Virus record (IMG/VR): IMGVR_UViG_3300009130_000012 | Coordinates: 1 to 64,000 of that record | Strand: one strand, 5' to 3' | DNA: 64,000 nt | From: a virus | Part shown: positions 1 to 15,133 of the stretch, in pieces | How the letters are laid out: every line of letters starts with the position of its first letter | Numbering within the stretch: position 1 is the first letter of the stretch | The notes under the pieces: generated by a model | Told to the model about the DNA's origin: nothing | Database searches by the model: none | What the model saw: only the letters and a program-made list of their open reading frames with translations | Translations under genes and position numbers: made by a program

Positions 1-281
1 TCAATTGAGGTTGTATTGACTGGCTTAAGCACCTCATTATTATAAAAGTGCATTCTATATGCGATAACTATTTTTTTATTCACCCCACTATAAAACCTTA
101 CTTGGAACCAGTAATCGTAGTCATCATCAAATTTATATAAACTAGTTAGACACCTATAACCATAACTTCCTATGTTATTATCTTTATGTCGTTTAGTATA
201 GAATAATTCATGTCCGATATGACCTAAATCATTTGAATTAATGAAGGTTTCCAATTCTTCTTTAACTTCTTTAGGACTCAT
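1..281 (-). CDS. hypothetical protein, runs off the left edge
   Basis: ATG at 281; open frame MSPKEVKEELETFINSNDLGHIG... continues to position 1 without a stop; start overlaps the stop of the upstream minus-strand gene. Confidence 0.7.
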   Translation of the reverse strand, partial: MSPKEVKEELETFINSNDLGHIGHELFYTKRHKDNNIGSYGYRCLTSLYKFDDDYDYWFQVRFYSGVNKKIVIAYRMHFYNNEVLKPVNTTSI

Positions 282-477
282 CTGACTTGTCATCACGTCT
301 ATTTAATATATCTAATAATGATAATGATATGTTAGTCCAAACAGTGGCTGATAACCAACCAATTAGACTAAACCAAGCATTTTCCTCATGGTCATATATT
401 TTAAACACTGATAAAGTTAACATAGTTATCATTACTATATGTGCTAAATATACAAAAATTTTAGATTTTTTACTCAT
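271..477 (-). CDS. small membrane protein with two hydrophobic helices
   Basis: MSKKSKIFVYLAHIVMITMLTLSVF...WFSLIGWLSATVW; start reassigned to Met13 of the track ORF. Confidence 0.6.
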   Translation of the reverse strand: MSKKSKIFVYLAHIVMITMLTLSVFKIYDHEENAWFSLIGWLSATVWTNISLSLLDILNRRDDKSDES

Positions 478-534
478 AAATACAAATATATTAATTATTA
501 TGATATTAAACAAATTTAAACGGATATTTATATA

Positions 535-1041
535 GTGATGAAAAAGAATGAAGTAATTAATGTAATCAATTCTCTGAAGAAATACTCTCCAGTATCTGAC
601 GATATCATTAATAGGTCTATCAAAGCATTAGATGATAGAACAGTTATTAATAAAAGAATTGAGGTGTTGACAAACACGTTATTAAACACAACATTTAATG
701 ACATAATTAATGGTGATATGGGTGATAAACTATTGTCAGAATTTAATGCCATCGAAAATCTTGCTCACGATTTATCCATGAGTTATTATGATTTAAAAAA
801 AGATATGGATGCCGAAATTTCTGAAGAGGAGTATTTGGATAATGAAGGTCTTTACGTTAAAGTTGAAGAAATGATGGACTACGATGTTATGATTAGTGAT
901 GAAATTAGATTACTATATGATATAAAAAGAGCTATAGATTCAATTTATGATGCTATGGACGAAGATAATCTTACGTTGACTAAACAAAGTGATTTCTTTG
1001 AGTCATTCAAAAGATTATCTGAATATAAAAGAATTATATAA
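535..1041 (+). CDS. hypothetical protein
   Basis: 168-aa ORF preceded by the recurrent TATTTAT motif (525-531). Confidence 0.75.
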   Translation: MMKKNEVINVINSLKKYSPVSDDIINRSIKALDDRTVINKRIEVLTNTLLNTTFNDIINGDMGDKLLSEFNAIENLAHDLSMSYYDLKKDMDAEISEEEYLDNEGLYVKVEEMMDYDVMISDEIRLLYDIKRAIDSIYDAMDEDNLTLTKQSDFFESFKRLSEYKRII

Positions 1042-1045
1042 TATA

Positions 1046-1110
1046 CGGTTTAGGACCTGTTATAGCTACGGCTATCCAATACCACTAATTCGCTACTAGT
1101 GGTATTTTTT
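1046..1110 (+). terminator. three-hairpin 3' element ending in an intrinsic terminator
   Basis: GGT-TTAGG-ACC; ATAGC-TACG-GCTAT (cUACGg tetraloop); AATACCACTA-loop-TAGTGGTATT followed by a T-tract. Confidence 0.6.
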
Positions 1111-1133
1111 ATTAAGACGCAATACAGATTAAC

Positions 1134-1382
1134 ATGCTAAAAAATAAAAAAACTAAAGATATTGCCGTGTTATTATTAACAATAACACTTTGTTTTATCC
1201 TAATACTAACAGTTATTGGTAGCGCCATTATGAATAATGATACTGGTGGTAAAATGGAGGAATTAATTGCCTTTATTTTAGGTTCTATTACTACCATCGT
1301 TGGTGAGTACATTCTACTACAATTAAAGCTTGGTCTTAAGGACGAAGAAAAAGAAGAGAAATCTAAAGAGATTGAGGAATAG
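1134..1382 (+). CDS. small two-TM membrane protein (holin-like topology)
   Basis: two hydrophobic segments followed by a charged tail (KDEEKEEKSKEIEE). Confidence 0.65.
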   Translation: MLKNKKTKDIAVLLLTITLCFILILTVIGSAIMNNDTGGKMEELIAFILGSITTIVGEYILLQLKLGLKDEEKEEKSKEIEE

Positions 1383-1459
1383 TGGGTCTGGAGGGAATTG
1401 AACCCGCATGTCACCAGTTACGCTTTCTACTGGTTATGAGCCAGAGGCGATACAGACCC
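1383..1459 (-). tRNA. tRNA with CAT anticodon (probably Ile2) and rearranged D-arm connectivity
   Basis: acceptor GGGTCTG/CAGACCC with A73; anticodon arm CTGG-CTCATAA-CCAG; T arm GCGGG-TTCAATT-CCCTC; D-arm-like AGCGTAACTGGT lies 3' of the anticodon arm. Confidence 0.8.
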
Positions 1460-1464
1460 TTAAG

Positions 1465-1546
1465 CACGGAAGAGTAGAGTCGAACTACTAGGGGTACGTT
1501 ACCCACGGTTTTGGAGACCGCTTATCTCACCAATGAAAGCTTCCGT
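1465..1546 (-). tRNA. tRNA-Trp(CCA) with long variable arm
   Basis: acceptor ACGGAAG/CTTCCGT with G73; GCGGT-CTCCAAA-ACCGT; variable stem GGGTA-ACG-TACCC; T arm AGTAG-TTCGACT-CTACT. Confidence 0.85.
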
Positions 1547-1548
1547 GT

Positions 1549-2457
1549 TTATTTATTATATTTTCTTTCCCATTTTCTAATCGCATTATCACTAACACCA
1601 TACTTTCTACCAGTACCTCTATAACCCAATTCTTTAATGTCTTCCAATAATACTTCATACGGTGGACGTTCTACTTTTCGTTGTGATAACGACATAGCTA
1701 TTTGTTTATTAGTCCTACCACCATTAACTCGCCTTTCTTCATCTAATTTAATTTTATTACGAGCTTGTCTACTAATATATTTTTCTATCGGATATACAAT
1801 ATACTTTTCATTCGAAATTATAGTTTCAGCTAAGATTTTTATTATCTCATCGGTTTTGTTTAAAACATTAGTTGCATGAAATCTAATGATTCTCCAACCT
1901 TCTTTATGTAAAAGTTTATCTTTTCTCTTATCCCTTTCCCTAACATCACTATTACCATGTTGACTCCCGTCTATTTCTATGGCTACCTTAATATCTACAA
2001 AAGCAAAATCTATAAAATAAGGAAACACACAATATTCTCTAACAATCTTAAATTTTTTATTATAGTCCAAATTTTCTAGCAACTCTTTAAAAATTTTTTC
2101 TGGGTAACTCATGTTTTTTTGTCTCCATGCGGTCTTATCTGGATTATTTCGCATGTACTCTAACCTTATCTCACGTAATTTAGCCTTTGTTTCATTACTA
2201 TGTTTAAAATTTTCACTATATAGTTCTCTACCTAATTTATTCGCTTCCTTAGTTGTCCGTTTTTTATTACCTATTATAGTAACGACTGACGATTTCCCAA
2301 TACTATATTTTTTAGCTAACTTATTTATCGATAAACCTTTATTTAGATAATCTGACATCACATCAGCACTAATAATCTGTATTTTATGACATGCTTTCTC
2401 ATGAGCAGCTAACCCACCCTTATTATTAAATGACTTATTACAATACCTACAATTCAT
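1549..2457 (-). CDS. free-standing homing endonuclease (DUF559/Vsr-like PD-(D/E)XK domain with Zn-finger, NUMOD3-like and HTH parts) inside the tRNA array
   Basis: CRYC...HEKAC; KHSNETKAKLRE; FIDFAF..KVAIEIDGSQH...DKRKD..L..EGWRIIRF; C-terminal GRKYGVSDNAIRKW. Confidence 0.85.
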   Translation of the reverse strand: MNCRYCNKSFNNKGGLAAHEKACHKIQIISADVMSDYLNKGLSINKLAKKYSIGKSSVVTIIGNKKRTTKEANKLGRELYSENFKHSNETKAKLREIRLEYMRNNPDKTAWRQKNMSYPEKIFKELLENLDYNKKFKIVREYCVFPYFIDFAFVDIKVAIEIDGSQHGNSDVRERDKRKDKLLHKEGWRIIRFHATNVLNKTDEIIKILAETIISNEKYIVYPIEKYISRQARNKIKLDEERRVNGGRTNKQIAMSLSQRKVERPPYEVLLEDIKELGYRGTGRKYGVSDNAIRKWERKYNK

Positions 2458-2521
2458 ATAAGTGTTTTTATATAAATAGTAAATAATTGTAAAACTAACG
2501 TCCTAACCTAATAAAAAAAAG

Positions 2522-2606
2522 TACTGCCGATGGGGTTCGAACCCACACGTTCCATAAGGAACCCAGATTGAAAGTCTGGTTGCTTAACCAATTTGCATAC
2601 AGCAGC
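2522..2606 (-). tRNA. tRNA with Glu anticodon (TTC) on a long-variable-arm, Leu-like body
   Basis: GCTGCTG/CGGCAGT with A73; D arm TGC-AAATTGGTTAA-GCA; CCAGA-CTTTCAA-TCTGG; variable stem GTTCC-TTAT-GGAAC; GTGGG-TTCGAAC-CCCAT. Confidence 0.85.
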
Positions 2607-2616
2607 ATAAAAAAAG

Positions 2617-2701
2617 TGTGTGAGGAGGGATTCGAACCCCCAAGACTAATAAAAGTATAGCATTTACAGTGCTACGAGCCAACCAGTTGCTCAACTCACA
2701 C
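2617..2701 (-). tRNA. tRNA-Tyr(GTA)
   Basis: GTGTGAG/CTCACAC with A73; GAGC/GCTC D stem; TAGCA-CTGTAAA-TGCTA; long variable region; GGGGG-TTCGAAT-CCCTC. Confidence 0.92.
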
Positions 2702-2709
2702 AATACATG

Positions 2710-2783
2710 TGGAATAGGTGGGTCATGCTCCCACAACCCTCGGTGTGCAAAACCAAGGTACGAGCTACTTGTTTATCTACCCC
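2710..2783 (-). tRNA. tRNA-Ala(TGC) with non-canonical D and T loops
   Basis: GGGGTAG/CTATTCC with G3:U70 and A73 (Ala identity); TTGGT-TTTGCAC-ACCGA; T arm GTGGG-AGCATGA-CCCAC. Confidence 0.8.
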
Positions 2784-2795
2784 ATAATTTCATTG

Positions 2796-2866
2796 CGGTT
2801 CATAACGGTTATGCTCCGTTTCCTTCACGGTGACAGCGTGATATTCTACTATTATACTAATGAACC
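2796..2866 (-). tRNA. tRNA-Asp(GTC) with non-canonical T loop
   Basis: GGTTCAT/ATGAACC with G73; TCACG-CTGTCAC-CGTGA; AACGG-AGCATAA-CCGTT. Confidence 0.85.
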
Positions 2867-2903
2867 AAAATATTTTTCAACATGTCAAATAACTTCTCTT
2901 CTG

Positions 2904-2976
2904 TGGTATGGGTTGGTACCGCCCCAACATATCTGGTTTTTCAGACCAGCGCATGAACTTTCATTGCTACCACACC
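2904..2976 (-). tRNA. tRNA-Phe(GAA) with non-canonical T loop
   Basis: GGTGTGG/CCATACC with A73; GCA/TGC D stem; CTGGT-CTGAAAA-ACCAG; GTTGG-GGCGGTA-CCAAC. Confidence 0.87.
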
Positions 2977-2992
2977 ATTAAATTTTAAACAT

Positions 2993-3026
2993 AAAAAAAC
3001 CCGACTAAATTTCTTCAGTCGGGTTT
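2993..3026 (-). terminator. attenuator terminator (3:4 hairpin) upstream of the tRNA array
   Basis: minus strand AAACCCGACTGAA-GAAA-TTTAGTCGGGTTT-TTTT, ending about 16 nt before tRNA-Phe. Confidence 0.88.
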
Positions 3027-3053
3027 CACACTACACAATCAATTTATACTAAA

Positions 3054-3143
3054 TCATTTATCGTAACGAACATATCCGACTGGACTGAAGCTATAATCCG
3101 CTTCGGCATAAAACCATTCAAATATGTTGTTAAATCTTTTCAT
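3054..3143 (-). CDS. 29-aa attenuator leader peptide MKRFNNIFEWFYAEADYSFSPVGYVRYDK
   Basis: ATG at 3143 to TGA at 3054; lies between a promoter and a terminator; codons 7-17 match the seven downstream tRNAs; contains segments complementary to the terminator 5' arm. Confidence 0.8.
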   Translation of the reverse strand: MKRFNNIFEWFYAEADYSFSPVGYVRYDK

Positions 3144-3180
3144 TACGGTATATTATTCTTTTATTATCAAATAAGTACAA

Positions 3181-3212
3181 CAAAGATATGGTAAAAGTTG
3201 CAAAAAAACAAA
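3181..3212 (-). promoter_or_regulatory. Bacteroidetes-type sigma70 promoter for the leader/tRNA operon
   Basis: minus strand TTTG (3212-3209), 20-nt spacer, TATCTTTG (3188-3181); matches the -33 TTTG / -7 TAnnTTTG consensus. Confidence 0.8.
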
Positions 3213-3343
3213 TAAAATTTAAGTTTTTTTATTAACTATCTGATAATCAGATAGAAAAATTTTTGTTTTTTTTTAATTAAAGTACATATTAGTGATTAAT
3301 CTAATTACTATTTAAATATTTATAAAACAATATTAAATTAATA

Positions 3344-3814
3344 TTGGTGGAAGAAATTAGATTTAGAGCAATTAATTATAAGGGAAAAAGAGAATACATT
3401 TTCGATTCAAAAGGTAAATATGTTAGGCACAATGGTAAGTTCATCCTTAAAGAAAAAGTTAAAAGTGCTGACAGTAAACTAAGAAATGAGATTACCAAAT
3501 ATTTTAAGAAGATGCCCAAATTAAAAACTAAGGTTAAGGGTATTAGGGATTTAAATAAGAAGTTATACTATGTTAAGGCTTGGTATCTGACCGAATCTAA
3601 TGATTTAACTGTTCTAAGGAATCATAATAAGAGAGGTTTTAGGAAATACCATTTAGACCACATATATCCGTTAAGCGTTGCCTATAAAGAAGGAATACCA
3701 CCAGAAGTGGTATCCAACATTAAAAATTTAAGATTCGTTCATTACAAAGTGAATCTTAAAAAACGTGATTTAGTAACTGAAACAGCTAAAAAAATAATTA
3801 ATAAATTATACTAA
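3344..3814 (+). CDS. HNH endonuclease-like protein
   Basis: YHLDHIYPLS...VSNIKNLRFVHYKVNLKK HNH-type motif. Confidence 0.7.
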   Translation: MVEEIRFRAINYKGKREYIFDSKGKYVRHNGKFILKEKVKSADSKLRNEITKYFKKMPKLKTKVKGIRDLNKKLYYVKAWYLTESNDLTVLRNHNKRGFRKYHLDHIYPLSVAYKEGIPPEVVSNIKNLRFVHYKVNLKKRDLVTETAKKIINKLY

Positions 3815-3982
3815 TTAAGACTTCAGATTTGAAATCATTAAATTCATACAAAGAAAGGTTATAGAACATTTCAATAAAAAAGTGGGAGCACCACCTTTAA
3901 CTATAAAGAACCCTAAATCTAAAACGGCGAAGGTAAATGCCATAATCGCTGTAAAGTCCATAAAATTTAATTTTCTTTTCAT
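3815..3982 (-). CDS. 55-aa membrane protein (not in the ORF track)
   Basis: MKRKLNFMDFTAIMAFTFAVLDLGFFIVKGGAPTFLLKCSITFLCMNLMISNLKS; directly follows the 3995-4756 gene. Confidence 0.55.
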   Translation of the reverse strand: MKRKLNFMDFTAIMAFTFAVLDLGFFIVKGGAPTFLLKCSITFLCMNLMISNLKS

Positions 3983-3994
3983 AAGACTAAAATA

Positions 3995-4756
3995 TTATCT
4001 TAAAACTTTTTTAACCGACCCATCACTATAAACTTCTATTACCATACCGCTAAAATCGTCTTGAACTTTTTGTCCTAATAAGTCATATATAGCGATTAAT
4101 TTTACTTCTTCCTTTTCTTCAATTTTATTACAAAATAAAATATCAAAAAACTCTGTTGTACCGTCGTAATCAGTTTGGTAAAGTCTATAATATCCATTCT
4201 GAGTTATAGGATATTCGTAATTGGTTACTTCTTGTGTGTTTCCTTGACCATATATTTCCCCTTTAGATACCCAAGTTATTCCATCAGTAGAATACTCAAT
4301 AGTAAAATGACTATTATTAATTTCAGCCCCTGTAGACCAGTTAATGGTTTTATCATTGCAGCTAAGTTCTATAAGCTCCACTGGTAAGGGTTGAACACAA
4401 TTTATGTCAACATAAGATAAGTTACCTGCACTTAAATAACCGTTACTATATGGGTAACCTTGACTAAGGTTATTAATATCGGTACAATTATTACAATGTC
4501 TATTTATATCAATAGAGTTATAGTTACCAGTAAAAGCACCTCCTATGGTTAATTTGGAGTTACACCCTAAAAGATTAATAGTTCCATAATTTGTTAAATT
4601 ACCAGTTAAAGTTAATTCGACATTATCACTTATATTAATTTCACCACCACTTAGATTAATATATGTTGACCAAGTGGTATTACTGGTAATGTTAGTGGTT
4701 TGTGATTTAGATATTGAACACGTAAAAACCAATAATAATAGTATTAATTTTTTCAT
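3995..4756 (-). CDS. secreted protein resembling Bacteroidetes T9SS cargo
   Basis: signal peptide MKKLILLLLVFTCSISKSQ; PLPVEL...WSTGAEINNSHFTIEYSTDG...YYRLYQTDYDG module; C-terminal YDLLGQKV...YSDGSVKKV. Confidence 0.75.
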   Translation of the reverse strand: MKKLILLLLVFTCSISKSQTTNITSNTTWSTYINLSGGEINISDNVELTLTGNLTNYGTINLLGCNSKLTIGGAFTGNYNSIDINRHCNNCTDINNLSQGYPYSNGYLSAGNLSYVDINCVQPLPVELIELSCNDKTINWSTGAEINNSHFTIEYSTDGITWVSKGEIYGQGNTQEVTNYEYPITQNGYYRLYQTDYDGTTEFFDILFCNKIEEKEEVKLIAIYDLLGQKVQDDFSGMVIEVYSDGSVKKVLR

Positions 4757-4832
4757 AATTGTTTTAATTAGCCGTTGGTAGTTTTATTATAAATACAAAG
4801 ATACGGCATTAATTTTTATATTACAACTATTT

Positions 4833-5300
4833 TTATATCTTATTAATTAACTTTTCTATGTTATTTTTTTTACAGTATTGGTGTAATTTTAGTTCATTGT
4901 TTTTACGTAATTTTTTCCTATAGTCTTTTAGTGAAGGGGTAAATAACCACGACGGAATATAAGTTACTTGCTGTAAAAACATCGGTTTGAAGACTCTTTC
5001 TCCGTTATTGTTGCGATAACCACTGGGTGTATAGTAATTACCCACTGGATTACATATCCAAAAGATACCATCATAAAATATTATATATCTGATTAGCACG
5101 TATTGTTGCCAGTTTAAGTCTTTTTTAGTAGCTTTAATGCCTTTTTTATAGTTTAACGCTCTACTCGTCCTAGTACCTTCTACAACATATAAATCTATCG
5201 AGTTTACTGGTACCCCAATATTAAATCCAGATAATAATTTTTCTTTATCTGAAGTTTTAATCGCAAAAATTAACCTATATAAATATCTTAAAATAAACAT
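4833..5300 (-). CDS. hypothetical protein
   Basis: 155-aa ORF; TATATTTG (-7 type) element immediately upstream on the minus strand. Confidence 0.65.
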   Translation of the reverse strand: MFILRYLYRLIFAIKTSDKEKLLSGFNIGVPVNSIDLYVVEGTRTSRALNYKKGIKATKKDLNWQQYVLIRYIIFYDGIFWICNPVGNYYTPSGYRNNNGERVFKPMFLQQVTYIPSWLFTPSLKDYRKKLRKNNELKLHQYCKKNNIEKLINKI

Positions 5301-5391
5301 ACAACAAATATAACAAAATATTCCATAATCACCAAAAAAATTAATCCTAAATTGGTTGGTGTAATTTTATGTAGTAGGTTTGTGATAAGAT

Positions 5392-5832
5392 ATGAATAAA
5401 TTTGATTTAGCAAAAAATCTTATACCTAATGTTCTACATCCTTTAGTGACGGATGTATTTTTTAGTTATAGTAAAAATTTAAAGGATGGGTTGACTTATT
5501 TTAACCCTATCCATGATAAGGTGTGTAAAGATTTTATATTAGATACGACTTTAGGAATATATGGTGACCCATTTGGTACCATTTCTATACACATAGAATT
5601 CGGTGGAGTTATTACTGTATTCGATGATTTAGAGTATAACATTATGTTAGCAATATTTAGTAATAGTGGTCTAGACGTTAGGCAATTACACTTTGCGCTA
5701 AATAGAGGTTTGACGGAAACAGATTTTATACATTTCACAAATACTCAATCAGATTATCATAATTTTAGGTTAGATATCGTATGTGAGTATTTTAGGGAAA
5801 TTAACATAAAGAAATTAAGTAGCTATTTATAA
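5392..5832 (+). CDS. hypothetical protein
   Basis: 146-aa ORF; TAGGTTTG element upstream. Confidence 0.65.
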   Translation: MNKFDLAKNLIPNVLHPLVTDVFFSYSKNLKDGLTYFNPIHDKVCKDFILDTTLGIYGDPFGTISIHIEFGGVITVFDDLEYNIMLAIFSNSGLDVRQLHFALNRGLTETDFIHFTNTQSDYHNFRLDIVCEYFREINIKKLSSYL

Positions 5833-5845
5833 TAAAATAGTTGTC

Positions 5846-6340
5846 GTGTCTAAATTTAAGTTAGCTATAATTGATGATGATATTGTAGATATTTGGTTAT
5901 ATGAAGAAATATTAATTTCAGCGTTTCCAGAATGTGAAGTTAATAAATTCTGCTCACTTGGTGACGTTAAAGATAGGTTACTAGAATTTAAACCAGATAT
6001 TATATTATTAGATTTTAATTTAAGTGATTCAACCGCTTTTGACGTTATAGAGTTTGTTAAACCTAAACTAGGTGAACTACCAATAATTGTAATAACTGGT
6101 GTAGAAGACAAAAGTATTATAACTAAATTATATGACGTAGGTATATATAATTATATTAAAAAAGATGTTACTAAAAATCTATTACCTAATGTTTTAAATA
6201 ATGCTGTATCTCAATATAACCTAAAATCTAGCGTTAGGATATTAAATAAGAGGTTGAAGATACAGAATTTCAATTTCAAATTATATGTATTATTATATTT
6301 GTTAATTACCGCATTTATTTTATATTTCATTCTAAAATAA
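5846..6340 (+). CDS. response-regulator receiver domain with C-terminal TM helix
   Basis: LAIIDDD...KPDIILLDFNL...LPIIVITG...YIKK receiver motifs; hydrophobic tail LYVLLYLLITAFILYFIL. Confidence 0.85.
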   Translation: MSKFKLAIIDDDIVDIWLYEEILISAFPECEVNKFCSLGDVKDRLLEFKPDIILLDFNLSDSTAFDVIEFVKPKLGELPIIVITGVEDKSIITKLYDVGIYNYIKKDVTKNLLPNVLNNAVSQYNLKSSVRILNKRLKIQNFNFKLYVLLYLLITAFILYFILK

Positions 6341-11248: not shown

Positions 11249-13735
11249 TTATTGTTTGAATGTTAATTTATCCGAATCTTTAGTATGGGTTACCTTTATT
11301 AGTTCGTCAGTATTAAAGGTGCCGTCAATAATCTTTTCAGCTAATACCACTTCTAGATGTCTATTAATTGCTCGTTTAATAGGTCTAGCCCCAAATTCTG
11401 AATCAAATCCCTCATCAACTAAGAATTTTATAGCGCTTGGATTAACTTTGATTTGGAATCCTTTATGCATTAACCTTTCCGACACCATTCTAACTTCATT
11501 AACGACTATCTTAGATATATCATCTTTTTTGAGAGAATTAAAGAACACTATTTCATCGATACGATTTATGAACTCTGGTGCGAAAACACCTTTCATTTCT
11601 TTCTCGATAATTTCTCTAACTCGATTATCCTCGTCGGCAACTCTAGATTTTGTGTCAAACCCTACTGAACTACCCGAATTCATAGCTTTTCTAACACCAG
11701 TGTTTGACGTCATCAAAATAATAGTGTTTTTGAAATTTATTTCTCTACCTAAACTATCTTTAATGTGACCATCATCCATAATTTGTAACATCATATTAAA
11801 TACATCTGGATGAGCTTTTTCAATTTCATCAAATAATACAACAGAATATGGTTTACGTCTAACTTTCTCAGTTAAATCCCCTCCAGATTCATAACCAACA
11901 TAACCAGGAGGTGCTCCAACTAATTTACTAACACTAAAACTTTCGTTGTATTCTGACATATCAACTCTAATTAATGCGTTTTCATCATTAAACATGTGTT
12001 TAGCTAACATCTTAGCTACTTGAGTTTTACCAACGCCAGTAGAGCCGATTAACATAAAGCTACCTACAGGTTTATTTGGATTACCTATACCTATTCTACC
12101 AACTTTAATAGCTGAGACAATCTTATTTATAGCTTCGTCTTGTCCTATAACATCTTTTTTAAGTAGTTTATCTAAATTAGAAATCTGTTTATTTTCAGAA
12201 ACACCCATTTTGGTTACTGGAACGCCACTAATTTGACTAACAATTTCTCTAATCTTTTCATCATCAACTACTCGTCTATTATTTTTAAGTTTGGATTCCC
12301 AATCCTTTCTTAATTTAGAAACTTTAGTCTTAAGTTTACTTTCTTTATCACGTAAAGAGGCGGCTTTTTCGTATTGTTGGGACTTGACAACTTTTAGTTT
12401 CTCGTCATTGACTTCACGAATTTCGTCCTCTAATCCAACTATATTTTTAGGTGTTGGGATATTCACTGAAGCTTTAGCTCCAGACTCGTCCAGTAAATCT
12501 ATTGCCTTATCTGGTAGGTGTCTATCTGTAATATACCTATGTGATAATTTAACACATTCTTCTATAGCCTCATCAGTATAATTAACAGCATGGAAATCTT
12601 CATACTTAGACTTAATGTTGTTAAGAATGAAAATAGCTTCATCCACTGATGGTTCTTCGATTTGAACTTTTTGAAATCTTCTGGTTAATGCCGCATCTTT
12701 TTCGATATTCTCACGATATTCATCTAATGTTGTCGCACCAATTACTTTAATTTCACCTCTAGCTAATGCTGGTTTTAAAATGTTAGCCGCATCTAAAGAC
12801 CCGCTAGTGCTACCAGCGCCAACAATCGTATGAATTTCATCGATAAATAGGATAATGTCATCATTATCTTCCAATTCCTTTACTAATCCTTGAATCCTTT
12901 CCTCAAATTGTCCTCTATATTTAGTTCCAGCAACCATGTTAGAGACATCCATCGAGTAAATTTCTTTACCTAACAACGTCCTTGGTGCAGTACCGTTAAT
13001 TATTTGCAATGCTAACCCTTCCACAATAGCAGATTTACCACAACCAGCAGGACCTACAATAATTGGATTGTGTTTTCTACGTCTAGCTAAAATAGTTATA
13101 ATCTCATTAATCTCTACATCTCTACCAATTACTGGGTCAATTTTTTGTTCTTTAGCCAATGTAGTTATATTTCTACATAAAGAATCTAATATCGGTGTTT
13201 TAGGTGAACCTTCTTTAGCAGTATTACGATTACGTCTTCTTTTTTTAGAGCTACCTTCATTAGGTTCCTCAATACTAGATTTAACTTCGTGGCTAGTACC
13301 ACCTAACTTTTCTCTCATATTGTCATAATTTATATTAAAGTTTTTCAAAAATTTACTTACGGATGAATCGAAATATAATATGGATGTTATAATGTGCGAA
13401 AATGACCCATAATCTAGACCTAATTCTTCAACCAAACTATGCGTATGGGCAAATACTTCCCTAACATCTTCATCTGGTATTACATTTTTAACTGTTAATG
13501 GACTATGATTTAATAAAGCGTTATTATAACAGAAATCGTGTAAACTATTAATATCCACACCATTTTCACTAAGGAAGTTTATTGCCTCAGTAATTTCGAA
13601 TTCGATTATTGTTAGTATTATATGTTCCAACATTAATTTTGGTGCACCGAATTGTTTAGCTTTTAAAACAGACTCACGCATCATTTCACTCACAATTCTA
13701 TCCATACCATTACTCATGCCACAAATATATGTCAT
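11249..13735 (-). CDS. clpC: ClpC/ClpA-family AAA+ chaperone (true start probably MSNG at 13717)
   Basis: IDPVIGRD; GPAGCGKS; LFIDEIHTIVGAG; UVR-like M domain QQYEKAASLRD; GSTGVGKT; KLVGAPPGYVGY; FGARPIKR. Confidence 0.95.
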   Translation of the reverse strand: MTYICGMSNGMDRIVSEMMRESVLKAKQFGAPKLMLEHIILTIIEFEITEAINFLSENGVDINSLHDFCYNNALLNHSPLTVKNVIPDEDVREVFAHTHSLVEELGLDYGSFSHIITSILYFDSSVSKFLKNFNINYDNMREKLGGTSHEVKSSIEEPNEGSSKKRRRNRNTAKEGSPKTPILDSLCRNITTLAKEQKIDPVIGRDVEINEIITILARRRKHNPIIVGPAGCGKSAIVEGLALQIINGTAPRTLLGKEIYSMDVSNMVAGTKYRGQFEERIQGLVKELEDNDDIILFIDEIHTIVGAGSTSGSLDAANILKPALARGEIKVIGATTLDEYRENIEKDAALTRRFQKVQIEEPSVDEAIFILNNIKSKYEDFHAVNYTDEAIEECVKLSHRYITDRHLPDKAIDLLDESGAKASVNIPTPKNIVGLEDEIREVNDEKLKVVKSQQYEKAASLRDKESKLKTKVSKLRKDWESKLKNNRRVVDDEKIREIVSQISGVPVTKMGVSENKQISNLDKLLKKDVIGQDEAINKIVSAIKVGRIGIGNPNKPVGSFMLIGSTGVGKTQVAKMLAKHMFNDENALIRVDMSEYNESFSVSKLVGAPPGYVGYESGGDLTEKVRRKPYSVVLFDEIEKAHPDVFNMMLQIMDDGHIKDSLGREINFKNTIILMTSNTGVRKAMNSGSSVGFDTKSRVADEDNRVREIIEKEMKGVFAPEFINRIDEIVFFNSLKKDDISKIVVNEVRMVSERLMHKGFQIKVNPSAIKFLVDEGFDSEFGARPIKRAINRHLEVVLAEKIIDGTFNTDELIKVTHTKDSDKLTFKQ

Positions 13736-13806: not shown

Positions 13807-14112
13807 ATGGTAACAAGAAAAATTGTTAAAGAAGACATACATAAATGTCTTATACAATCATCCAACATTAAAGCTTCTGAATATGACGCTAAGAAAAAAG
13901 ATTTACTAGTTACATTCAAAAACGATTCTCAATATGTCTACAAAGGTGTACATGAAGCAGATTATTTAAGATTTGAGATTGCGGAAAGTAATGGTAAGGT
14001 ATTAAACTCAATCATTAAAAAGAATTATAAATTCGAAAAGGTTGATGATTTTAAAAAAATAGATGAAGATTTATATAAACCACTAGAAGAAAATAAAGAA
14101 GATGGAGAATAA
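13807..14112 (+). CDS. KTSC domain protein
   Basis: SSNIKASEYD...LLVTFKNDSQYVYKGV...AESNGKVLNSIIK. Confidence 0.85.
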   Translation: MVTRKIVKEDIHKCLIQSSNIKASEYDAKKKDLLVTFKNDSQYVYKGVHEADYLRFEIAESNGKVLNSIIKKNYKFEKVDDFKKIDEDLYKPLEENKEDGE

Positions 14113-15133
14113 TTTGGATAAACAATATTTGGATATCATGTGTGATATATTACATAATGGACATACCAAAGGTGATAGGACTGGTACTGGAACTAAATCT
14201 CTTTTTAGTAGAGAGATTAGACATAATATGAGAGACGGGTTTCCATTATTAACTACTAAGAAATTGTACACTAAAGGTATTATTCACGAATTACTTTGGT
14301 TCTTAAAAGGTGATACTAATATCAAATACCTAAAAGATAATAAAACAAGGATTTGGGACGAGTGGGCTGATAAGGATGGTGACTTAGGTCCCGTGTATGG
14401 TAAACAATGGGTTAATTGGGGCGGAACTATCGAGACTAAGTTTGGTCCCGAAAAAGATGCTTTAGGTCATCTAGAAAAACACGTTATTCAACATAGAGGA
14501 ATTAATCAAATCCAAAATGCAGTTGACTTATTAAAGAAAGACCCAGATTCTAGACGTATTATGGTGAATGCTTGGAATGTTGGAGAATTGGATGATATGG
14601 CGCTAATGCCTTGTCACTACGGGTTCCAACTTTATACTAGAGAATTGAGTTTGGAAGAACGTAACAATCTACTTACTGATATGTTGAGTGATGGTGTACC
14701 TATTTCAGTTGATAAATTAATACAAGAATTTTATAATAACCCATCGGAGGGGTTGGTAGTTGAAGCTTGTGATAAACTGAACATTCCAACTAGAGAAATA
14801 TCTTTAAAATGGACGCAGAGAAGTGCTGATTATTTGTTAGGGGTTCCGTACAACATTGCTAGTTATGCCTTTCTGCTAGAAATGTTTGCTCAAGAATGTA
14901 ATATGATAGCTGGAGAATTGATTGGTTCTTTTGGAGATGTACACTTGTACAATAATCATATTAAATATGCTGAGGAGCAATTAGAACGTGACTACTATAA
15001 GTATAAATTACCTAAACTTAAACTTAATAAAGCTAAGGATATGTTTAGTTATACTATCGATAATTTTGTAATAGAAGATTATGAAGCTTACCCTAATTGG
15101 ACTGGTGAGAAAAAACCACCAATTGCAGTATAA
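14102..15133 (+). CDS. thyA: thymidylate synthase
   Basis: DRTGTGT; FPLLTTKK; ELLWF; DLGPVYGKQW; SRRIMVNAWN; MALMPCH; QRSADYLLGVPYN; HLYNNH. Confidence 0.97.
   Translation: MENNLDKQYLDIMCDILHNGHTKGDRTGTGTKSLFSREIRHNMRDGFPLLTTKKLYTKGIIHELLWFLKGDTNIKYLKDNKTRIWDEWADKDGDLGPVYGKQWVNWGGTIETKFGPEKDALGHLEKHVIQHRGINQIQNAVDLLKKDPDSRRIMVNAWNVGELDDMALMPCHYGFQLYTRELSLEERNNLLTDMLSDGVPISVDKLIQEFYNNPSEGLVVEACDKLNIPTREISLKWTQRSADYLLGVPYNIASYAFLLEMFAQECNMIAGELIGSFGDVHLYNNHIKYAEEQLERDYYKYKLPKLKLNKAKDMFSYTIDNFVIEDYEAYPNWTGEKKPPIAV

Follow-up and report, generated by a model that had tools for sequence, protein, structure and literature searches.

We describe a candidate leader-peptide attenuator in front of a phage tRNA operon, in which 11 consecutive codons of a short upstream open reading frame (uORF) correspond to the tRNAs encoded downstream. 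The operon occupies positions 1383-3212 on the minus strand of a 64,000-nucleotide stretch (the window), which is the first 64 kb of the 100,844-bp IMG/VR virus record IMGVR_UViG_3300009130_000012 (CheckV completeness ~30%). The source is a marine T4-like phage; the record encodes a T4-type major capsid protein, a portal and a large terminase, and near-identical DNA is present in marine metagenomes. We consider it probable that the leader acts as a ribosome-mediated transcription attenuator with stall-induced antitermination, through which the operon would exert negative feedback on its own tRNA supply. This reading is well supported in silico by sequence comparison and fold modelling: we found a leader ORF, a cognate codon cluster, an intrinsic terminator, mutually exclusive 1:2, 2:3 and 3:4 pairings and covariation between leader codons and array. 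Of a preliminary description of this DNA, the ribosome-stalling attenuator with sensor codons mirroring the operon's tRNAs is thus the part supported in silico, and from it we infer uORF translation, the stall-dependent switch and its physiological trigger.

The leader consists of the following elements, with pairings taken from the minimum free energy (MFE) fold.

3212-3181, minus strand: promoter-like site of the Bacteroidota type, found by pattern match, with a -33 TTTG (3212-3209), a 20-nt spacer and a -7 TATCTTTG (3188-3181)
3175-3144, minus strand: A-rich 5' untranslated region (UTR) seen in the sequence, the transcript presumably starting near 3175
3147-3140, minus strand: 5' strand of an outer stem that includes the AUG and pairs with 3069-3062
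3143-3054, minus strand: leader uORF from the ORF call, ATG start, 29 codons plus TGA, lying between the promoter match and tRNA-Phe (2976)
3128-3114, minus strand: segment 1, the 5' strand of the leader hairpin, with 3127-3118 paired to 3079-3070 and 3116-3114 to 3083-3081
3125-3093, minus strand: sensor block, codons 7-17 (I F E W F Y A E A D Y), the longest run of cognate codons
3083-3069, minus strand: segment 2, containing CAGUCGG (3082-3076), a copy of the terminator 3' arm
3027-2989, minus strand: intrinsic terminator, a 14-bp stem with a 4-nt GAAA loop (3027-2996) followed by a T-run (2995-2989)

Downstream lie seven tRNA or tRNA-like genes and an endonuclease gene.

2976-2904, minus strand: tRNA-Phe (GAA), Rfam 42.7 bits, found by ARAGORN at relaxed settings, with a non-canonical T loop (GGCGGUA)
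2866-2796, minus strand: tRNA-Asp (GTC), found by default ARAGORN and Rfam, T loop AGCAUAA
2783-2710, minus strand: tRNA-Ala (TGC)-like gene, found by ARAGORN with -ps80 and -mt only, T loop AGCAUGA
2701-2617, minus strand: tRNA-Tyr (GTA), found by default ARAGORN and Rfam
2606-2522, minus strand: tRNA with a TTC anticodon (Glu codons) and a long variable arm, found by default ARAGORN and Rfam
2457-1549, minus strand: homing-endonuclease-like ORF inside the array, Pfam DUF559, E = 5e-15
1547-1465, minus strand: tRNA with a CCA anticodon (Trp codon), a long variable arm and an extended acceptor stem, found by default ARAGORN
1459-1383, minus strand: CAT tRNA-like element without a normal D arm, Rfam tRNA 29.3 bits against a cut-off of 29

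The promoter match, uORF, terminator, seven tRNA or tRNA-like genes and endonuclease were all recovered where the preliminary description had placed them. No tRNA genes other than these seven were found in the record. The promoter rests on a consensus match, the pattern occurring 7 times in the window against 3.6 expected. A Shine-Dalgarno sequence is absent ahead of the uORF, as expected for Bacteroidota hosts.

Leader codons 7-17 read ATA TTT GAA TGG TTT TAT GCC GAA GCG GAT TAT, and all seven cognate codon families, and no others, make up this run. In a six-frame survey of the whole 100.8-kb record, which covered 67,842 codons in 1,342 ORFs of 15 aa or more, the leader came out on top with 11 codons of 7 kinds. 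The second-longest run (9 codons, 4 kinds) occurs in a 98-aa ORF, and the next-longest among the 1,213 ORFs of 15-80 aa has 6 codons. The share of the cognate set, roughly guessed before at 40% of codons, was measured as 30.7% in the 68 long ORFs of the record, giving p^11 = 2.3e-6 per position instead of 4e-5; by Monte Carlo simulation, a run of at least 11 is expected with a probability of ~1e-4 for a 29-aa peptide. When the CAT element is taken as a Met tRNA and not as a lysidine-dependent Ile2-type tRNA, the run still spans 10 codons with all 6 remaining kinds (0.281^10 = 3e-6). The leader itself was not retrieved elsewhere: the exact terminator pattern and back-translated NIFEWFYAEADY each had 0 matches in the viral contig collection, a 33-nt leader pattern gave 0 matches in the metagenome contig collection, and the phage genome collection returned only short tRNA and endonuclease matches.

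The preliminary description had proposed testing whether leader codons covary with the anticodons of the array, and covariation was borne out by three other, independent viral loci, fetched for other reasons, that show the same cassette layout with different tRNA sets.

L003/L004 (identical across the cassette and counted as one): the promoter has TATCTTTG at its end and is followed by a uORF of 35 codons, a terminator and genes for tRNA-Pro (twice), -Gln, -Tyr, -Thr and -Gly
L005 (177-kb contig): two tRNA-Asn genes immediately preceded by a 16-bp terminator, with a 22-codon uORF and a sigma-70-like promoter (identified by eye) further upstream
G024 (capsid identity 55%): downstream of a TACCTTTG promoter come a 36-codon uORF, a terminator and 15 tRNA genes in one block, which serve 14 amino acids

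The L003/L004 leader has T, Y, Q, G or P at 13 of 15 consecutive codons, and that of L005 reads NNNNAN in front of its two tRNA-Asn genes. In G024, codons 4-25 (NKQHMSIINVVKQFSNCWYPRM) form 22 codons in a row that use only, and all of, the 14 amino acids of the block. The agreement extends to single codons: Arg is encoded within this run by CGT, the codon of the ACG tRNA in the block, and the leader samples the two Ser tRNAs of the block (TCG and AGT); AGA and ACT codons stand outside the run, and the TCT- and TGT-anticodon tRNAs are found in the other block of the contig. A 4 x 4 cross-match of leaders and arrays gave best-window binomial p values of 1.2e-5 (window), 8.7e-7, 1.6e-5 and 6.7e-6 for a leader with its own array, while all off-diagonal values were at least 0.02, that is, no leader fits the tRNA set of another locus. 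In all four leaders, the 3' half of the uORF also includes 7 nt that are exactly complementary to the 5' arm of the locus's own terminator (Fisher combined p = 6e-5 over the four loci). The cassette looks homologous while its codons track the array, because the window, L003 and G024 share a promoter and 5' UTR core (AACTTTT...TAyCTTTG). Further relatives added little: capsid relatives were at most 61% identical and provided a usable cassette from G024 only, relatives of the 253-aa ORF (L001, L121-L128, ~65% identical) end before the array or have tRNAs without the cassette, and the relative search returned none for the neighbouring 168-aa ORF.

The predicted structure of the leader RNA agrees with an attenuator, and every pairing named in the preliminary description exists according to MFE folding and complementarity checks. 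The 191-nt leader folds far better than shuffled sequences (z = -4.95), its MFE fold consisting of the 1:2 hairpin and the terminator. CAGUCGG (3082-3076) is an exact 7-nt complement of CCGACUG (3022-3016) in the terminator 5' arm and thus a candidate antiterminator (dinucleotide-shuffle p = 0.0125; duplex p = 0.006). Of the two antiterminators put forward before, this one held up, but CUUCAGUC:GACUGAAG, a real complementarity, is the weaker candidate and probably secondary, because a natural variant at 3084 breaks the pairing and the inner hairpin competes with it.

We modelled the effect of the ribosome by cutting the transcript after the terminator loop and holding 28 nt around each A-site codon unpaired. 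With the A site on codons 2-15, the antiterminator was present in the MFE fold and 0.59-0.68 of the terminator 5' arm was paired upstream. In the absence of a ribosome the 1:2 hairpin replaced the antiterminator (5'-arm pairing 0.39), and it likewise formed with the ribosome on codons 16-21 (0.36). Stalls at codons 16-17 are borderline, their permissiveness being unclear in this mask model. The modelled permissive zone also ends near the end of the sensor block at the other loci, at codons 20/21 (L003), 13/14 (L005) and 25-27 (G024). In the completed 1:2 hairpin the AUG of the leader is sequestered in the outer stem (3147-3140 with 3069-3062). With the start codon in this stem, ribosome loading may be confined to the time of transcription, so that each transcript would be tested once.

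These observations are consistent with the following mechanism. Transcription would start near 3175, and a ribosome would load on the nascent leader and translate the 29-codon uORF. If ATA, TTT, GAA, TGG, TAT, GCC/GCG and GAT are decoded fast, the ribosome would reach the stop codon and leave, upon which segment 1 (3128-3114) would pair with segment 2 (3083-3069), the terminator (3027-2996) would form and RNA polymerase would halt 13 nt before tRNA-Phe. If any cognate aminoacyl-tRNA is scarce, the ribosome would stall within codons 7-15 and cover segment 1; CAGUCGG would then pair with CCGACUG, the terminator would be blocked and the polymerase would read into the seven tRNA genes. The new tRNAs would relieve the stall, closing a negative feedback loop.

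The same features might be explained in other ways. The uORF and terminator could belong to an independent small gene that specifies either a 29-aa protein or a small structured RNA; the tRNAs would then arise from leaky read-through or an unrecognised promoter, and the codon match would be due to chance. The whole uORF does lie in one long hairpin that sequesters the AUG, as might be the case for a non-coding RNA, and attenuator-derived RNAs can act in trans elsewhere (rnTrpL; PMC6614838). However, the codon run is the extreme of the whole record, four loci with different tRNA sets have leaders that each fit their own array only, and the terminator-arm copy lies inside the ORF in 4/4 loci. 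Moreover, there is no room for a separate promoter before tRNA-Phe, because the terminator ends 13 nt upstream. We therefore regard an independent small gene as improbable. The likelihood is similarly low that the terminator is a constitutive insulator, with the genes from Asp onwards transcribed from an internal promoter near GTTATTTGACATRTTG (2893-2878) and the leader controlling at most tRNA-Phe. This 16-nt motif is conserved, following tRNA-Phe in the window and the terminator in L003, and a sigma-70-like TTGAAA-18-TATAAT occurs at 2880-2851. The latter was rejected as a promoter, its TATAAT being the D loop of tRNA-Asp. Neither a TAnnTTTG nor a usable -10 is seen by eye with proper spacing from GTTATTTGACATRTTG, and the region shows no excess of sigma-70-like sites (26 found, 36.8 expected). 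An internal promoter would also leave the Asp, Ala, Tyr, Glu, Trp and Ile codons of the leader unexplained.

The switch could also work with reversed polarity, efficient translation of the leader promoting read-through (for example, through a coupled ribosome that prevents termination), so that the array would be made only when its codons are well decoded. Coupling of transcription and translation can suppress terminators in some systems (PMC5021804). Yet the stop codon lies 26 nt ahead of the terminator stem, which a terminating ribosome cannot reach, and the position of the terminator-arm copy downstream of the sensor block in 4/4 loci corresponds to the geometry of stall-induced antitermination. 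Reversed polarity is accordingly very unlikely.

Several points weigh against a stall-induced attenuator matched to its array. A modelled ribosome on the stop codon frees CAGUCGG, and the antiterminator is predicted again (5'-arm pairing 0.52); segment 2 being left free in this state, the ribosome would have to be released and the 1:2 hairpin to refold before termination. The 14-bp terminator is thermodynamically far stronger than the 7-bp antiterminator, and the switch must therefore be kinetic, as in trp. Among the seven tRNAs, two are non-canonical: the Ala gene (2783-2710) has no Rfam match and the CAT element is at the cut-off. Decoding of GCC by the UGC anticodon also requires expanded wobble. 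The preliminary description had held that homologous arrays with other tRNA sets should differ in their leaders, which is the case for the loci above, but the related arrays G006, L123/L124 and that of the crAss-like phage Kehishuvirus lack such a cassette; those of G006 and Kehishuvirus have plain promoters and neither leader nor terminator.

Further points of this kind come from close strains, represented by contigs from three other marine studies (runs X4, X5 and X10) that are ~97% identical over 2975-4800. In all three, tRNA-Phe is replaced by 107 other letters, and X4 and X5 have 66 letters in place of the stretch that runs from Asp and Ala into the 5' portion of Tyr, with the leader unchanged. 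A mismatch between leader and array in these strains is therefore possible and constitutes the main point against strict matching. Because such strains differ by cassette-like replacements in the array, its tRNA content, judged from these contigs, turns over quickly. One close strain carries a 51-letter insertion between the Asp and Ala tRNAs, and X10 has 1,691 letters in place of the HNH-like ORF region 3276-3751. The leader of the close strains differs from that of the window at two places. The variant at 3084, the sole substitution in the uORF, is synonymous (AGT to AGC), changes a G.U to a G-C pair in the 1:2 hairpin and breaks the second candidate antiterminator CUUCAGUC; the variant at 3147 changes C-G to U.G in the outer stem and keeps the pair. 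As weak evidence from two events, both variants fit a translated, structured leader.

The proposed attenuator might be triggered when host immunity cleaves tRNAs, when host tRNAs are lost following shut-off or when late genes raise the demand for codons. A more specific proposal, which we find conceivable though doubtful, is an inducible seven-input counter-defence, in which structurally odd and perhaps nuclease-resistant tRNAs stay silent until a tRNA-depleting immunity system (e.g., a host anticodon nuclease) stalls ribosomes on any of the seven codon families. The long variable arms, reduced D arms and altered T loops of the tRNAs are compatible with this idea and do not demonstrate it.

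The array genes differ in how readily they are recognised. Default ARAGORN finds four (Asp, Tyr, Glu, Trp), and the Rfam tRNA model finds Phe, Asp, Tyr and Glu, with the CAT element at the cut-off. The tRNA-Ala-like gene, which ARAGORN detects when its settings are relaxed or mitochondrial, combines a reduced D arm with the Ala identity pair G3:U70. The Phe, Asp and Ala tRNAs lack a canonical TPsiC loop, and the near-identical odd T loop in Asp and Ala suggests a selected non-canonical design. The best Rfam model for the Trp (CCA) tRNA is tRNA-Sec (41 bits, under the cut-off of that model). Long variable arms, in class II-like tRNAs of 82-86 nt, are found in the TTC (Glu) and CCA (Trp) genes and in a TCC (Gly) tRNA of L003 (5087-5168, plus strand); these tRNAs may be allo-tRNA-like or nuclease-evading variants.

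The cultured crAss-like phage Kehishuvirus tikkala has an unannotated homolog of the CAT element, 84.6% identical, in its tRNA array (L120 1501-1565; OQ198717.1 95582-95646); the homolog directly follows tRNA-Trp, as the element does in the window, and carries the Ile anticodon GAT. The two elements differ by compensatory changes in two stems (CGC:GCG to CUC:GAG; G-C to U.G), which support a stem enclosing the anticodon hairpin in place of the D arm. Because the homolog in the same place has an Ile anticodon, the CAT element, with an Ile-type body and a CAU anticodon, is probably a lysidine-dependent Ile2-type decoder of ATA, the codon that opens the sensor run. The Ile2 assignment of the preliminary description thus gains from the Kehishuvirus homolog, although the element itself is non-canonical and the support indirect.

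The endonuclease (2457-1549) combines an N-terminal C2H2 zinc finger with a DUF559/Vsr-like nuclease. Its C-terminal 43 aa are 74% identical to endonucleases of the L003/L004 array, and a 70-nt stretch of the gene shares 81% identity with a homing-endonuclease gene from Leptolyngbya phage Lbo-JY46, which points to a mobile family associated with tRNA arrays. The spacer motif GTTATTTGACATRTTG, located at 2893-2878 on the minus strand of the window and at 3603-3618 on the plus strand of L003, may serve as a processing signal, be the target of a homing endonuclease or mark the edge of a cassette. At L003 2009-2131 (plus strand) there is a match to YrlA, a Y RNA-like family (43 bits, cut-off 69), adjoining a 118-nt tRNA-like match at 2131-2248 (plus strand); the two may form a phage Y-RNA-like module. 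Elsewhere, the window encodes a stand-alone response-regulator receiver domain protein (5846-6340, plus strand), a ClpB-like double AAA+ ATPase of 828 aa (11249-13735, minus strand) and a thymidylate synthase (14102-15133, plus strand). The sequencing runs listed with matching DNA include no RNA dataset.

Attenuators that sense several amino acids are known from ilvGMEDA (Ile/Val/Leu) and thr (Thr/Ile), and those with a single input from trpL, hisL, leuL and pheL. In the pheST (pheM) attenuator of E. coli, leader-peptide control acts on the phenylalanyl-tRNA synthetase that serves the sensed codons; unlike the window element, this host-owned attenuator responds to one amino acid and acts on a synthetase gene. 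Leader-peptide attenuators of amino-acid operons have been modelled (PMC1183508). Like the window element, they combine 1:2, 2:3 and 3:4 pairings and an intrinsic terminator with a short ORF in the leader whose regulatory codons are clustered, and, as proposed here, a stalled ribosome selects the antiterminator and the output relieves the stall. In contrast to them, the element in the window is phage-encoded, regulates tRNAs and not enzymes, would restore tRNA and not an amino acid, and has seven inputs sampled once or twice where they have homopolymeric runs. None of the Rfam leader families (His_leader, Trp_leader, Thr_leader, Leu/Phe leaders) matched window positions 1-6000 at E <= 1, and L005 gave a chance-level Thr_leader match (23.7 bits, cut-off 55). 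T-box riboswitches, for which, as for other riboswitch families, the Rfam family models gave no match in window 1-6000, resemble our proposal in that transcription attenuation responds to the state of a specific tRNA. They bind uncharged tRNA directly via a specifier codon and without translation, whereas the window has an ORF.

The nearest published case is the trn operon of Anabaena sp. PCC 7120, which is controlled at the promoter via direct repeats (PMC8421152; PMC10272220); the 2023 paper on this operon names a repressor, TrcR, in its title. This accessory tRNA array behaves as proposed for the one in the window, staying silent by default until impaired translation induces it. Unlike the array in the window, it resides on a cellular megaplasmid, and neither PMC8421152 nor PMC10272220 mentions an attenuator, leader or terminator. 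Phage tRNAs are described as replacing host tRNAs depleted by tRNA-cleaving defences (PMC11555353; PMC12409363); the titles and abstracts of these two papers concern the phage tRNAs themselves and do not mention a codon-matched sensing leader. Our full-text literature searches found no account of leader-peptide attenuation of tRNA genes. The logic of the element is that of the trp, his and ilv attenuators and is already known; the regulated product, tRNA genes, and the phage context are new.

If the proposed attenuator is correct, phages regulate tRNA genes by gauging decoding speed at the codons that those tRNAs read, and classical attenuation would extend from amino-acid supply to tRNA supply. 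The leader would then be a sequence-level read-out of the functional tRNAs of the phage and would vouch for the odd tRNA-Ala and the Ile2-like element, both of which standard tools miss. The match between codons and array could in this way improve the annotation of phage tRNA operons, and the cassettes, as compact and portable sensors of tRNA availability, could serve as reporters. It is debated whether phages carry tRNAs to serve codon supply, to make up for host shut-off or to evade immunity that cleaves tRNAs, and the leader, if it works as proposed, would specify which shortages matter to the phage.

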